A DNA stretch of 24,036 nucleotides from a virus (Duplodnaviria > Caudoviricetes), in the IMG/VR virus record IMGVR_UViG_3300037882_000522, positions 1 to 24,036 of that record; one strand, written 5' to 3'. Of this stretch, positions 1 to 23,935 are shown piece after piece. The stretch's first letter is position 1. The number at the start of each line of letters is the position of its first letter. The notes below the pieces were generated by a model. That model saw only the letters and a list, made by a program, of their open reading frames with translations. It was not told the DNA's origin and did no database searches. The translations under genes and the position numbers were made by a program.

Positions 1-1
1 T

Positions 2-502
2 AAAAAATTTAGGGCAGCGCTCGCAGACAAAAGCGGCGATCTGTCGAGGGAGTTTCACGAGCAATACCCGCAGTTCTGCGAAAAAACATTAGATTATTTC
101 GAGCGCATGGGGCGATTCGCTGAAAATGCAGCGACACGCGACGATTTAACGGCGCACATTGACGCGGTAACTGATGTACTAAGCCGTCAAACAAGCCAAA
201 TAAATCTACATGACCGACGAATCAATGAGCTTGACTACCGCGTTAAACACCTAGAGCAATTAGCTACCCACACCAAAATCAGCGTGGACGCAAACACCGC
301 AATATCCAAACAAACATTACAGCTAGTCGAAATATCTAGCGCAAAAATAGATCAACTCACTGCATCGCCAATTAAATCACTGCCAGCCATCGCCTATCCT
401 ATTTTGGGCGTTATTGCGCTGGCATTAATCGCCGCAGCCAGTGGCCAAATGGCCGCGTTCATAGGCTGGCTTGGCACCATAAAAGTCTTTGGGGGTGTGT
501 AG
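2..502 (+). CDS. Coiled-coil protein with C-terminal transmembrane segment, lysis-module associated; probably 5'-truncated by the window
   Basis: The frame of ORF 107..502 is open back to base 2 (KKFRAALADKSGDLSREF...) and ATG107 lacks a clear SD. Heptad region HDRRINELDYRVKHLEQL and hydrophobic AIAYPILGVIALALIAAASG. Its stop overlaps the holin GTG start (TAGTG). Confidence 0.75.
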   Translation, partial: KKFRAALADKSGDLSREFHEQYPQFCEKTLDYFERMGRFAENAATRDDLTAHIDAVTDVLSRQTSQINLHDRRINELDYRVKHLEQLATHTKISVDANTAISKQTLQLVEISSAKIDQLTASPIKSLPAIAYPILGVIALALIAAASGQMAAFIGWLGTIKVFGGV

Positions 503-912
503 TGAATCCATTAGCTATTGTCGAAATTGGCGCGAAATTAATAGACAAATTGATCCCAGACCCACAAGCAAAAGCGGCCGCAAAGCTTGAGCTGCTGAAA
601 ATGCAGAGCGAAGGAAGCTTAAAGGAGGTTGAGCTGTCTCTAAGTGCGATAATCAGCGACTCAAAAAGCGCAGACCCGTGGACTAGCAGGGCTCGCCCAA
701 CTTTTCTTTACGTCGTTTATATTTTGATTTTGTGGTCGCTGCCAATGGGGGCCATGTTTGTGTTCAGCCCTGACGCAGCCGAACGGTTTACTAATGGCTT
801 TGGGTTGTGGCTTAGCTCGATCCCTGAGCCTGTTCTAACGCTGTTTGGCACGGTAATGCTGGGGTATATTGCTGGTAGGTCATTTGATAAAATTAAGGGG
901 GTGGCTAAATAG
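502..912 (+). CDS. Holin, 3-TM GTA-type (Holin of 3TMs for gene-transfer release-like)
   Basis: LIDKLIPDP..K..AKLEL N-terminus, W.SRARP.FLY motif, hydrophobic helices and basic C-terminus GY..GRSFDKIKG match this holin family as I recall it. Confidence 0.88.
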   Translation: MNPLAIVEIGAKLIDKLIPDPQAKAAAKLELLKMQSEGSLKEVELSLSAIISDSKSADPWTSRARPTFLYVVYILILWSLPMGAMFVFSPDAAERFTNGFGLWLSSIPEPVLTLFGTVMLGYIAGRSFDKIKGVAK

Positions 913-931
913 CCAGTAGTCGGCGCATGCC
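906..931 (+). repeat. Left copy of ~26-bp imperfect direct repeat (TAAATAGCCAGTAGTCGGCGCATGCC); contains the holin stop codon
   Basis: Matches 1268-1294 with a 12-bp identical core TAAATAGCCAGT, then 3 substitutions and a 1-nt indel. Confidence 0.8.
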
Positions 932-966
932 GGCGAGTGTCGTTGAGGCCTCAATCCTATCGCAGT

Positions 967-995
967 TTGCGGAACCGGCATAGAGCTGGTATAAT
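967..995 (+). promoter_or_regulatory. Sigma70-type promoter with extended -10
   Basis: TTGCGG (967-972), 17-nt spacer, TATAAT (990-995) preceded by TG at 987-988. Predicted start ~1001-1002. No ORF of 60 aa or more follows on this strand within the gap. Confidence 0.8.
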
Positions 996-1000
996 TGAGT

Positions 1001-1167
1001 TGGGGTAAGCGGCTCCCCCCTAATGAATTCGCCTGAAATGGCAAAGCGAGCGTGGGTTTCGGTTGGGCGCCCCATAGCGTGTTAAGTCACGAGGATGCAT
1101 AAATGCAAGTGGCTCGGAGATAGACGGAAGGCCGAGCAAACCGATGACAGCCGGAAAGACGGCACCA
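1001..1167 (+). ncRNA. Putative structured non-coding RNA (~165 nt), family not recognised
   Basis: Lies directly downstream of the promoter. Stems: GGGG/CCCC (1002-1018), TTCGC/GCGAG (1028-1050), and TCGGTT/AACCGA (1059-1064/1139-1144) enclosing CGTG/CACG, TGCA/TGCA and GCTCGG/CCGAGC. Terminal GCCG-GAAAGA-CGGC hairpin followed by ACCA (1164-1167). The 3' end is inferred. Confidence 0.65.
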
Positions 1168-1267
1168 TTCAATCAACTATCGGATAAGCCGCGGCAATTA
1201 ATGACATCACAGCTCAACTAATGTGTCGCATGCCGGCAAGCCAATTGATAAAGCCAAAAAGGCTGTA

Positions 1268-1294
1268 TAAATAGCCAGTGGTCAGTGCTATGCC
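1268..1294 (+). repeat. Right copy of ~26-bp imperfect direct repeat (TAAATAGCCAGTGGTCAGTGCTATGCC); contains the endolysin stop codon
   Basis: Matches 906-931; the copies are 362 bp apart. Confidence 0.8.
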
Positions 1295-1761
1295 TCTTCC
1301 CCAATAAACTTTTCAGCCATGCTTATATAATGCTCAACAGTGCCGGAACCTAGCTCGCTGTTGTAGTATTTTTTCCACATAGCAGCACGCTCAGCTCTCG
1401 TCATAGGTATTGCGGGCATCAAATAAACCTTTAGACGGCACCATATTGCCCCTACAAGAGGTGAGTATTCTAGGTCGCTAAACGCCACCCTGTTTATGTC
1501 GATATTGAACTCTGAAATCAAAGGCTTGACGAATCGCTGTGATCTGATTTTTGTATCAACAAACCCAACGCTATCAAATTGGAAAACACCCTTTCCTTGT
1601 TCGAAATGCCTGTCTCGCACGCTGCCTAAGCCTGTTTCGGCAGCCGCTATTTCTAGTAAAAATTTAGATGCAATAGAAACGTTTTTATTGTTGATAATTT
1701 CGCACGCACGATGAATGTGATTGTTTAATTCTTGCTCTGAGCTTAGCCCGTAAAAAATCAT
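1288..1761 (-). CDS. Putative endolysin, lysozyme-like/transglycosylase fold
   Basis: Helix ending in a catalytic-type Glu (EIAAAETGLG), G.GVFQ motif, A..CRL..Y..P.IP and WKKYYNS..G.GT...Y motifs. Adjacent to the holin. SD-like AGGGTG upstream of the ATG. Confidence 0.7.
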   Translation of the reverse strand: MIFYGLSSEQELNNHIHRACEIINNKNVSIASKFLLEIAAAETGLGSVRDRHFEQGKGVFQFDSVGFVDTKIRSQRFVKPLISEFNIDINRVAFSDLEYSPLVGAIWCRLKVYLMPAIPMTRAERAAMWKKYYNSELGSGTVEHYISMAEKFIGEEA

Positions 1762-1782
1762 ATTTGAACACCCTGGTTAACA

Positions 1783-1801
1783 TAGCCGCCCTCGGCGGCT
1801 A
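1783..1801. terminator. GC-rich hairpin, probable leaky intrinsic terminator after the tailspike gene
   Basis: Perfect 8-bp inverted repeat TAGCCGCC-ctc-GGCGGCTA. Weak U-tail on the minus strand (TGTT); GTATTTTTG follows on the plus strand. Confidence 0.55.
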
Positions 1802-1886
1802 GTATTTTTGCTATAAATTTATTCAATACAAAATCGCTCGATTAGTGTTTTTGTCGTCAATGTCATCACCTCAAATGCGAGCAAAA

Positions 1887-4586
1887 TTACACTGGGGTAT
1901 TTACAGTTGACCCGTCTGCGCTTTTCCATACGTCTGTAGATACAGCCCCGCTAGCGACTGAAATGGTGTCCAGAGTGTCATCATATGCCAGCTTTCCTTT
2001 AAATTTCCCGTTTGTGTTGATCGTATTTGCTGCCGAATTTAGCGCAGCAGTTGTTGTAATTTGCATGTATGACGATATTGTTACCCACGCAGCAGCAGTC
2101 AATAAGTTTGGGGTGTCTGAAATATAAACAAATTCCCTGTTTATCGGCCACGACGTTAAGTCTATGAATCGCGTACCTGATGACGCCCCAGCTTTATCTA
2201 ATGCTGGCAATGTGTAGCTTGCAAACTTTGACGTGCAATTGTTAAATTCATTATCATCAACAAGCCCATGCGACGATAGGAATTTGCTATTAAGCGAACC
2301 CTCAAAATCAATTCCCACCGAGCTCCCTCCGCCAAAAAACTTATTTCTTCGAATTTTATAAAATGATGAGTGGTCTAGCTCGATAGATTTTGACGTACTT
2401 TCTATGTGCGGGTTGTCTTCGATTAGCACAAATTTAACATCATTGAGCGCAATTGCGCGCGGCGCTTTTAATTTTTTGTTATGGTGTATATTAATCGCTT
2501 TTACTGACGCATCGTCAGGGGAATCGTGGACTATAGAAATCGCTGTATTTGTTGAGTCAATGTTGCAATATTTAATTTCTGTTGCTGCATTTTGGGTTGC
2601 GCCTTTCACTCGAACCCCGATATCCTGCCCCTCGAGTCTTACATTGTCAATAACGCAATCCTGCGTGTATTCCATTTTAATTGCTAAAAACGCATTGCTT
2701 CTTATGTCCCCGTTTGCAAAGTTATCTTGCTTGCAGGAAAACGCTAGGATGTTTGTTTTTTCCTGCGCCCCAAATGCGTCATCCATGTAACCGGTTTGTT
2801 TGAATCCGTTCCACGTTGTGCGTCTGGAGATGTAGCTAATAAGTATATTTCCGACGCAATGCCCCGTTACATTTGATACATTATTGTCAAAACTGTCGAA
2901 ATATGCGGCTACCCCTCCGTGGCAATTTCTGACCGTAATATTGTTGATATTATTATTGTAGCTGCCGTTTAGGTATGCACCAATTGAGTTGATGTTTGTG
3001 GAGTAATAGCCGTCAACTGTAACATTGTTAATATTGTTGTGGCATGCTCTGAGGTTTAGCAATAGCGCCGAGTCTCCCCCCTCCTTAAATTTAAGATTTA
3101 GGTCACTGATGTTATTGTGACAACAGAATGACTCAAGCCGTACGCCGTTAGATATTTTGCTATCGACTGAAATATTCGTTAGCGTGTTATAACAAGCCTT
3201 GTTGCTAAGCAAAATCCCTCTGCCACCGTATATTGCTATATTGCTGATTTTGGATTTTTTAATTTGATCAAAACTAACGCACTCCTTGTAAAATCCGGCC
3301 CCTGCATTTGCGCTGTCATCAATTGAAAAATCTCTGACGGTTAGGTTCTCAGAGCCTACAAGTTTTGTTACTCGGGGGGTATTGAATCCAACATAGCTGG
3401 CTTGTGCGTTTTCACCAGATAGCCCGCCGTACAACACAGGGGCAACCGGATACGCATAAAATGTAGACTGCTCAAACGTAAGCGTGGTTGACGTAAGGGC
3501 CCTGACTGTCATAACCTCTCCAGCCGCAAAGTCGTTGCCGTCAACGTTCCACACTGACGGATCGGAGCCTTGCTCAAGCTGCCGCCAGTGGTCACAGTAA
3601 CCGTTAAAAATAAAAACTAAATCCCCCTCAGCAAAACCGGTAGTGCTTGCTACTGTTACTGTGTACGAGTCGACAGAAACGTTAGCTGTAATTAAGCTCA
3701 TCGGGGTGCCGGCCGCTACAGTCTCATTGTAATACTGAGCAGTGTTATCAAATGACCGGAAACCTGCGCCTTTTTCGCAACGGATCCTAGCGTTAGAGGT
3801 TGGGCGCAACGTTGCTCTATGGCCAACGCCACGTAGCGTTTGTCCATCGCGCAACCAGATATCATTTGCAAAAGTGACAGTTGATGCAAAATAAACTATA
3901 TCTGATGAATCAAGTGCACTCTGCATAGCAGTGACAGAATCCACCGCGTTTGTAGTTCCGCATTGCTCAAAAAATACTGCACTGCAACTATGCTTTGCAT
4001 AAAACCCACCACCTAAATCATGGTTTCTTCCCTGCCAAATCCCGCCAACCAGCGTTGATAAATTACCAGGATTGACATTAGTTATAACGTAATCAGCACC
4101 GCCAGCGTTTGATGTTGTGTTGCTCACTACAGTAGAGACTTTGCGGCCAAGGTAGTCCGACCAAACAATTGAACCAATACCATTAAGCGGTGTGCCAGTC
4201 TTCATTGCCGCTACTGTGGCGAACTCTGCCGAAACGATAGATTGATAACCGTCACCCTCGTAATTGCTTATGTTATCGCAAACCCAAAGAGCGTTAGCGG
4301 TGTTGTCCGCGTCGGCGTCGGCGGCTGTTGCGTATAGTGCAGCCTTATAGCCACCGTCAACATACGGAACAAATACAGAATCATCATCAACAGAATTGGA
4401 GATTGGCTCGCCGCGAGTGTTAAGCTTGCATTTTGTTAAGCTTGAGCCTCCTATATCTAGCGTCCACATTAGTTTGTTAGTAGTGGTACCAACGTCATAA
4501 AGTTTAAGCCAGTATCCGCTGGCCGAGGCTCCGCCTGCATTTTTTGAATACTGGGGTGGTAATCCTGCGATTGAGCGCCTAGCCAT
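1887..4586 (-). CDS. Tailspike / receptor-binding protein with parallel beta-helix (putative polysaccharide depolymerase)
   Basis: 899 aa. N-terminal virion-attachment region (GYWLKLYDVGTTT...LNTRGEP), D...AMQSALD motif that typically precedes tailspike beta-helices, then many Asn-rich N.I.NI.V repeats. Position after the ejection genes as for P22 gp9. Confidence 0.88.
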   Translation of the reverse strand: MARRSIAGLPPQYSKNAGGASASGYWLKLYDVGTTTNKLMWTLDIGGSSLTKCKLNTRGEPISNSVDDDSVFVPYVDGGYKAALYATAADADADNTANALWVCDNISNYEGDGYQSIVSAEFATVAAMKTGTPLNGIGSIVWSDYLGRKVSTVVSNTTSNAGGADYVITNVNPGNLSTLVGGIWQGRNHDLGGGFYAKHSCSAVFFEQCGTTNAVDSVTAMQSALDSSDIVYFASTVTFANDIWLRDGQTLRGVGHRATLRPTSNARIRCEKGAGFRSFDNTAQYYNETVAAGTPMSLITANVSVDSYTVTVASTTGFAEGDLVFIFNGYCDHWRQLEQGSDPSVWNVDGNDFAAGEVMTVRALTSTTLTFEQSTFYAYPVAPVLYGGLSGENAQASYVGFNTPRVTKLVGSENLTVRDFSIDDSANAGAGFYKECVSFDQIKKSKISNIAIYGGRGILLSNKACYNTLTNISVDSKISNGVRLESFCCHNNISDLNLKFKEGGDSALLLNLRACHNNINNVTVDGYYSTNINSIGAYLNGSYNNNINNITVRNCHGGVAAYFDSFDNNVSNVTGHCVGNILISYISRRTTWNGFKQTGYMDDAFGAQEKTNILAFSCKQDNFANGDIRSNAFLAIKMEYTQDCVIDNVRLEGQDIGVRVKGATQNAATEIKYCNIDSTNTAISIVHDSPDDASVKAINIHHNKKLKAPRAIALNDVKFVLIEDNPHIESTSKSIELDHSSFYKIRRNKFFGGGSSVGIDFEGSLNSKFLSSHGLVDDNEFNNCTSKFASYTLPALDKAGASSGTRFIDLTSWPINREFVYISDTPNLLTAAAWVTISSYMQITTTAALNSAANTINTNGKFKGKLAYDDTLDTISVASGAVSTDVWKSADGSTVNTPV

Positions 4587-23428: not shown

Positions 23429-23471
23429 AGCCAAAAATTCACAAAACCCCGCAATATGCGCCAGTTTGTCG

Positions 23472-23879
23472 CTTTTCTAACTTTTCTAACTTTTCTAACC
23501 TGCCTTTAGAACCAAGTTAGAAAAAAGTTGCCTAGTGCCACGTGGCTTAGCGGGGAGTTTTCTTATTTTCTTATTTTTATTATATATATAAAGATATAAA
23601 GATATATATATAAGAAAGAAAGGGGGGGGGTAGGTAAGTAAGAACTAAAGGGGGTGCGTCAGAAAAGTTAGAAAAGTTAGAAAATAAGAAAACTCCACGC
23701 TAACCCTAGTGCCACGCGGGTTTCGTTTTCTAACATGAAGTTAGAAAAAAGTTAGAAGTGAGAAAGAGCAAAAAGGCTTTTCTAACTTTTCTAACTTTTC
23801 TCACATGCAAGTTAGAAAAAAGTTTCTTAGTGCCACTAGGCTTAGCGGGGAGTTTTCTAACTTTTCTAACTTTTCTAAC
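23472..23879. repeat. Iteron array with AT-rich core; putative replication origin
   Basis: More than a dozen exact or near copies of TTTTCTAAC/GTTAGAAAA in both orientations, including tandem triplets at 23472-23499, 23777-23803 and 23853-23879. ~85-bp direct repeat (23471-23563 vs 23776-23858) and an AT core at 23558-23620. Lies between divergent transcription units. Confidence 0.8.
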
Positions 23880-23906
23880 TTATTTTGAAAATAGCAAAAT
23901 AAGAGC

Positions 23907-23935
23907 TTGTATTACGCGTAACAGATTGCTATAGT
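23907..23935 (+). promoter_or_regulatory. Sigma70-type promoter with extended -10, divergent from the late operon
   Basis: TTGTAT (23907-23912), 17-nt spacer, TATAGT (23930-23935) with TG at 23927-23928. Confidence 0.7.

Follow-up and report, generated by a model that had tools for sequence, protein, structure and literature searches.

A candidate small-RNA cassette in a phage lysis region, closed by a UGAC/GAAAGA hairpin that recurs among phages

Does a promoter that points into a gene-free gap of a phage lysis region make a stand-alone small RNA, and does that RNA imitate a tRNA acceptor end, which a preliminary description of the DNA had raised as one possibility, or do something else? We addressed this in a 24,036-nt stretch of DNA (the window) from IMG/VR record IMGVR_UViG_3300037882_000522.

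Setting, promoter and edges of the unit

In this 24-kb stretch of phage DNA, P22-like genes for portal, terminase, capsid, head closure and ejection lie on the minus strand. Completeness is 73% for a longer contig from this phage, and the metagenome runs examined that contain its DNA come from freshwater. The RNA region sits in a 375-nt gap between a holin gene and a convergent 157-aa gene (Table 1), which bears out its earlier placement inside the lysis region. A Foldseek search with the model of the 157-aa protein returned a chitinase catalytic domain (probability 0.96, TM 0.53, E 0.3), with transglycosylases ranked below; judging from this model, the gene is likely an endolysin.

Direct repeats of 16 and 14 nt flank the gap (906-937 and 1227-1283) in swapped order. 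The 16-nt pattern, which was derived from the copies themselves, has two matches versus 0.24 expected, and no further full match to either repeat was found elsewhere in the window. Between a tail-fibre-like gene and the 157-aa gene (1783-1886) lies an 8-bp hairpin, and inspection of the minus strand by eye showed an ORF of 15 codons whose ribosome site is strong. An ORF-poor, AT-rich stretch at 23436-23930, with many AGTTAGAAA-type repeats in both orientations, looks like an origin or attachment region. On the longer contig (L148, 5215-5856, minus strand), a 213-aa protein matches the RNA ligase family PF17720 (E 5e-12); its gene lies ~2 kb upstream of the holin gene, on the same strand as the RNA.

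The promoter comprises TTGCGG (967-972), a 17-nt spacer and TATAAT (990-995), with TG at 987-988. The combination TG.TATAAT occurs once in the window, at one of five TATAAT hexamers. The promoter sequence was thus as previously described, though its -35 hexamer is weak, matching the consensus at three of six positions, and a consensus promoter scan did not return it for that reason. The absence of a substantial ORF was likewise confirmed, with none above 30 aa on the plus strand in 996-1290. Host RNA polymerase would be expected to start near 1001. Since no terminator-like site was found on the plus strand between 996 and 1783, a 3' end at 1167 would require processing. Four terminator-like sites were found in 1-4000, versus 4.4 expected.

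The edges of the unit were indicated by a 151-nt metagenome contig, which matches 951-995 with five differences, continues with five other letters and then matches 1168-1191 exactly. Beyond this match, the contig carries a Shine-Dalgarno sequence, followed after 9 nt by an ATG. The window ATG at 1201 is equally spaced, has no Shine-Dalgarno sequence and opens an ORF of only 6 codons, indicating by sequence comparison that the ribosome site behind the cassette has decayed. Because the contig joins the promoter to the leader at 1168 and skips 996-1167, the unit described earlier behaves as a discrete cassette, present in one phage and absent from its relative by gain or loss, with edges that fit within ~5 nt. 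The idea of a stand-alone, self-promoted unit therefore stood as regards its boundaries, by way of one contig of depth 2.9, flagged as possibly from another organism or a repeat, in which the shorter side of the joint is 24 nt.

Table 1. Features of the locus and its surroundings, in window coordinates
Feature	Position	Strand	Remark
Holin gene (3-TM family), upstream neighbour	502..912	+	PF11351, E 9e-21; phrog_3427 holin
16-nt direct repeat, copy 1	906..921	+	Copy 2 at 1268-1283
14-nt direct repeat, copy 1, small hairpin	924..937	+	Copy 2 at 1227-1240
Sigma-70-type promoter, extended -10	967..995	+	Predicted start near 1001-1002
Candidate RNA cassette, ~167 nt	1001..1167	+	Edges good to ~5 nt; joint 995-1168 in related contig
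3-bp hairpin	1031..1042	+	Pairing probability 0.8
32-nt module found in another flanking context	1047..1078	+	1 difference; second metagenome record
Possible five-way junction	1059..1144	+	Minimum-energy fold when alone, minor in full RNA
Pan-phage hairpin: UGAC-A, 4-bp stem, GAAAGA loop, A	1145..1164	+	Window copy is the modal sequence
CCA after motif	1165..1167	+	6/117 copies in family
Leader shared with cassette-less relative, then decayed ribosome site and ATG of 6-codon ORF (1201-1221)	1168..1203	+	
157-aa gene, convergent with RNA	1288..1761	-	Predicted lysozyme-like fold; phrog_3108
Terminator-like 8-bp hairpin and T tail	1783..1811	+	First such site downstream of promoter; z -2.5

Folding and homologues of the RNA

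The RNA had been called highly structured, and this did not hold: 1000-1167 folds at -48.4 kcal/mol versus -53.7 in shuffles (z +1.46), and 189 of 200 shuffles fold as well. The proposed multi-way junction stood in part, being both the minimum and the centroid of 1059-1144 folded alone (z -0.83) but a minor fold in the full RNA, where its closing helix TCGGTT/AACCGA has a pairing probability of 0.08-0.14. The first of the two 5' hairpins reached only 0.28 in the full RNA, and the whole fold proposed earlier lies 3.8 kcal/mol above the minimum. Short perfect stems are nevertheless in excess over shuffles in this region, which had been fixed beforehand by the preliminary description: seven non-overlapping stems of at least 4 bp were found versus 3.6, and 6 of 1000 shuffles reach seven. 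No excess over shuffles was seen at 3 bp.

The last hairpin, GCCG-GAAAGA-CGGC (1150-1163), has a pairing probability of 0.99 and is followed by ACCA (1164-1167), exactly as proposed. The RNA is not a tRNA cloverleaf: no tRNA or tmRNA was detected, and ARAGORN remained silent down to 80% of its threshold. Nor did it match a named RNA family, with no hit up to E 10 in 900-1300 against Rfam 15, a collection that includes C4, ribozymes, GOLLD and ROOL.

No full-length homologue was found among 574 loci, INPHARED phages or ~800 genomes; the ~800 gammaproteobacterial-side genomes gave six short hits, all judged from context to be chance. Among 160 loci carrying relatives of the 157-aa protein, only this phage has the RNA or the motif. 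Two records with ~90% holin identity diverge from the window right after the holin stop. Most of eight metagenome runs contain near-identical DNA, and no variants were seen in the eight in 996-1167, which they cover in part; the 22 runs listed with phage DNA include no RNA run. The 32-nt module at 1047-1078 recurs in a second metagenome record, preceded there by a GACA-GCCG...CGGC-ACC stem with a different loop and followed by AGCCGA; judged by eye, this hexamer could keep the pairing with TCGGTT by means of one U-G.

The terminal hairpin and its occurrence in other phages

The terminal hairpin belongs to a widespread phage motif, which consists of UGAC, usually an A, a stem of 4-6 bp with a closing G-C pair, a six-base loop (GAAAGA or, rarely, GAGAGA) and a purine. 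The window copy is intergenic, on the transcribed strand and downstream of a promoter. Its exact 21-mer occurs in 27 IMG/VR stretches whose upstream sequences are unrelated. When the stem positions were freed, the resulting 16-base pattern was estimated to occur in ~700 IMG/VR stretches, whereas a control of 15 bases drawn from this RNA came to 23. Each free stem position pairs in 97 of 99 distinct copies, and with the outer pair also freed, 77 of 109 copies pair at all three positions. Among the 81 copies in which both inner pairs form, the outer pair is G-C in 56, C-G in 9, A-U in 8, U-G in 3 and G-U in 1, and is unpaired in 4. Covariation in a set of 56 distinct 20-mers, chance hits included, was 0.433 versus 0.158 in shuffles (0 of 500 shuffles), with 72.8% of cells paired versus 55.4%.

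Stem sequence varies freely, while the loop and UGAC are fixed; the distance from UGAC to the loop is also fixed at 8-9 nt, which the scan patterns partly imposed. A purine follows the stem in 27 of the 32 copies in which the pattern did not impose one. The motif was hit 122 times in GTDB genomes, with full pairing in 48 hits, from records of many phyla; the unpaired hits look like chance and are mostly coding. Unbiased scans yielded 117 copies, this phage's own included and loci selected for ACCA excluded; CCA follows 6 of them, so CCA is not part of the motif. We found no description of the motif in the literature, subscription journals and bioRxiv supplements lying outside the coverage, and none in the accessible part of bioRxiv 10.64898/2026.10.21.760802.

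Several other accounts of its parts were rejected. TGACA does not behave as a -35 box, as the preceding base varies among copies, and a UG/CA pairing with an ACAG bulge is contradicted by the outer stem pair, which covaries instead. No upstream partner for UGAC was apparent, GUCA not being enriched, and a UCUUUC partner of the loop was counted 7 times versus 3.3 of 161. Mimicry of 23S rRNA was suggested by an 8-mer, GGAAAGAC, identical to E. coli 23S 2056-2063, yet 55 of 200 shuffles match likewise and the full motif is absent from it. The inner hairpin at 1112-1126 had 23 exact matches, 22 of them outside this phage, and none continues the hairpin, so it was not retained as a second recurrent module; together with the terminal hairpin it occurs only in this phage. 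Finally, 1065-1087 was likened by eye to a freshwater-phage module (13 pattern hits), and a 12-member profile of that module did not match the window.

The surroundings of the motif were analysed in 137 paired viral copies, loci from the exact 21-mer search included. The motif lies on the same strand as the next gene in a ratio of 40:8 and as the previous gene in a ratio of 37:6. Extra nearby copies are on the same strand in 27 cases and antisense in one, reciprocal pairs being counted twice. A tRNA lies within 400 nt of the motif in 20 of the 137 copies, with an opposite-strand tRNA in one of these 20; where the tRNA is downstream (14 cases), it starts 2-9 nt after the motif in 9. Promoter-like sites were found upstream in 16 of 114 cases versus 6, 6 and 2 in controls, and ribosome sites downstream in 28 of 176 versus 6. 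Neither intrinsic terminators downstream (32 of 157 versus 22, 42 and 42) nor boxA-like sites upstream (11 versus 18 antisense of 171, with none in the window) are enriched. Among 114 neighbour proteins, no gene family recurs beside the motif, nor is the motif linked to lysis genes; of 57 downstream proteins scanned, 6 are products of capsid and scaffold genes.

Comparable ORF-free arrays of hairpins behind a promoter were observed at a Gallionella locus, in an E. coli prophage and in Vibrio phage 1.123.O, where the array also lies between convergent genes. The E. coli prophage, located at leuZ (L184, 1440-2190; L578, 5850-6839), has a ~1-kb ORF-free leader with three motif copies, in which GAGGAAAGACC is repeated, once just before an ATG; part of this leader matches 449 of 5426 E. 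coli genomes. One copy, in L165 (1223-1539), is placed after or before a HEARO RNA on one side and the beginning of a gene of the HNH family on the other. Hammerhead or hammerhead-like sequences adjoin the motif in L044 (an Rfam hit) and, by eye, in L097 and L186. The ORF-free arrays of related phages (L580-L591, L008 and L056) share a conserved 67-nt multi-stem module, which matched nothing in Rfam at three scanned loci of this kind.

Possible roles of the RNA and its relation to known systems

We tentatively favour the explanation that 1001-1167 is an accessory small-RNA cassette of swappable hairpin modules, which would be released and closed by a boundary hairpin; this is a possible reading, drawn from sequence comparison. 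The fixed lead, loop and spacing, combined with a free stem, suggest that the motif is a protein-binding site, its spread across phyla suggests that the reader is a host factor, and its position between RNA units and just before tRNAs suggests a boundary mark. Since the motif closes the cassette and the gene behind it has decayed with promoter and motif left intact, a released small RNA is the likely product. We infer that the unit is transcribed, that its 3' end is made by processing near 1164-1170, where there is no terminator, and that the hairpin is read by a host factor conserved across phyla. The bound hairpin would fix and protect the 3' end. The small stable RNA so released may work in trans, most likely as a decoy or scaffold that binds protein. 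Against a released RNA stand the unexceptional stability of the fold (z +1.46), the lack of a full-length homologue in the collections searched, the lack of a recurring partner family among the 114 neighbours and the shortness of the 4-bp stem, which could not hold back exonucleases unless a protein were bound to it. The broader proposition, that phages across phyla make small RNAs from interchangeable hairpin modules with a universal UGAC/GAAAGA end mark and a conserved host reader, and that the present cassette is a trans decoy, appears doubtful when taken as a whole.

The enrichment of ribosome sites behind the motif fits a role in cis too. The cassette could be a vestigial leader whose modules act on the elongating polymerase or on downstream translation, in the manner of nut/boxB, and whose gene has since decayed, an explanation that we consider unlikely, if still a serious contender. 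Multi-copy ORF-free leaders in the E. coli prophage and the Gallionella locus follow a promoter and end in the order motif, leader, ribosome site and gene; the window ATG at 1201 aligns with the gene start in the relative; capsid or scaffold genes follow some copies; and boxB of lambda nutR is a hairpin of like size whose loop reads GAAAA (PMC2724277). This role is opposed by boxA-like sites that are not enriched upstream of the motif and are absent from the window, by intrinsic terminators that are not enriched downstream, by the lack of an N-like family among the 114 neighbours, by the relative that has promoter and gene without the cassette, and by the persistence of promoter and motif though the gene is gone. 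That persistence, of a perfect extended -10 and a modal motif beside a decayed ribosome site, also argues against passenger DNA, left over from a mobile leader and now without function, as do the seven intact stems and the lack of variants across the eight runs, which covered 996-1167 in part. A mere passenger is very improbable, even with a cassette that is absent after the holin in two relatives, a weak fold and a body conserved in nothing that was searched.

Alternatively, the promoter could read through the cassette and the endolysin-like gene to 1783-1811 and limit leaky endolysin expression as an antisense damper. Such read-through agrees with the terminator-free plus strand between 996 and 1783, with a T tail on the plus strand at 1783-1811 although both flanking genes are on the minus strand, and with the lysozyme-like fold of the 157-aa gene. 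We regard it as decidedly unlikely, given that terminator-like sites are at chance level and the hairpin could serve the minus strand, that the modules and cassette edges are left unexplained, and that elsewhere the motif does not have lysis genes as neighbours. The acceptor-stem mimic or decoy raised as a possibility in the preliminary description, an RNA ending at 1167 whose stem and ACCA serve as decoy or substrate for RNase P, a synthetase or CCA-attacking toxins, found little support and is improbable. The cassette edge does fall at ACCA within ~5 nt, the first three pairs, the discriminator A and CCA are the same as in E. coli tRNA-Phe pheV, a purine commonly follows the stem where none was imposed, and the RNA-ligase-like gene lies upstream on the same strand. 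A short model hairpin is also cut by E. coli RNase P RNA via the RCCA interaction, according to the available part of PMC3874170. These points are outweighed by the rarity of CCA among the unbiased copies and of RCCA in further ones (2 of 32), by a 4-bp rather than 7-bp stem with a hexaloop and no T-arm, on which ARAGORN is silent, by a free stem sequence with a conserved loop and 5' UGAC, which an acceptor mimic would not need, and by the lack of a terminator that would make a 3' end at 1167.

A 20-nt element that phages of many host phyla keep with compensatory changes points to an unrecognised, conserved RNA-protein or RNA-processing interaction, and a hairpin that did fix RNA ends in many hosts would be a portable part for small-RNA expression. 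To this the locus adds a single-copy, self-promoted example of the motif with natural boundaries, and it is a compact test case, with one promoter, one motif copy and, for control, a relative devoid of the cassette.

Candidate structured RNAs of viruses, including covarying phage RNAs of 29-151 nt from IMG/VR, are presented in PMC10690425, as far as that source was available. The motif resembles that set in being an uncatalogued covarying phage RNA from IMG/VR; it was absent from the six supplements searched, and overlap is possible in three large files outside the search. The motif is also reminiscent of lambdoid nut boxB (PMC2724277), being likewise a small hairpin of untranslated phage RNA whose loop is purine-rich (G...A) and which is often preceded by a promoter. 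Unlike boxB, it has a six-base loop, a 4-6 bp stem and a fixed UGAC lead, it lacks boxA, enrichment of intrinsic terminators and, among the proteins scanned, an N-like neighbour, and it turns up in tRNA arrays as well as in phages and prophages from many phyla. No N-like protein was detected with PHROGs among the 24 window proteins, from a genome 73% complete, or among the 114 motif neighbours.

Phages make small stable RNAs such as T4 species 1 and 2, P1/P7 C4 and P4 CI, with tRNA-like processing and, in some, tRNA-like ends. The RNA described here is similar to these in being phage-encoded, 80-170 nt long and multi-hairpin, with release by processing as proposed here, and differs from them in having no Rfam match. 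A search for an antisense target of the C4/CI type gave no match at E 5 or better in 28 kb of the phage, whose genome is incomplete. With tRNA acceptor ends and RNase P model hairpins, the locus shares a stem followed by RCCA (PMC3874170, available part). Unlike an acceptor end, the window hairpin has 4 bp and no T-arm, and what its family conserves is the loop and the 5' lead, not the CCA.
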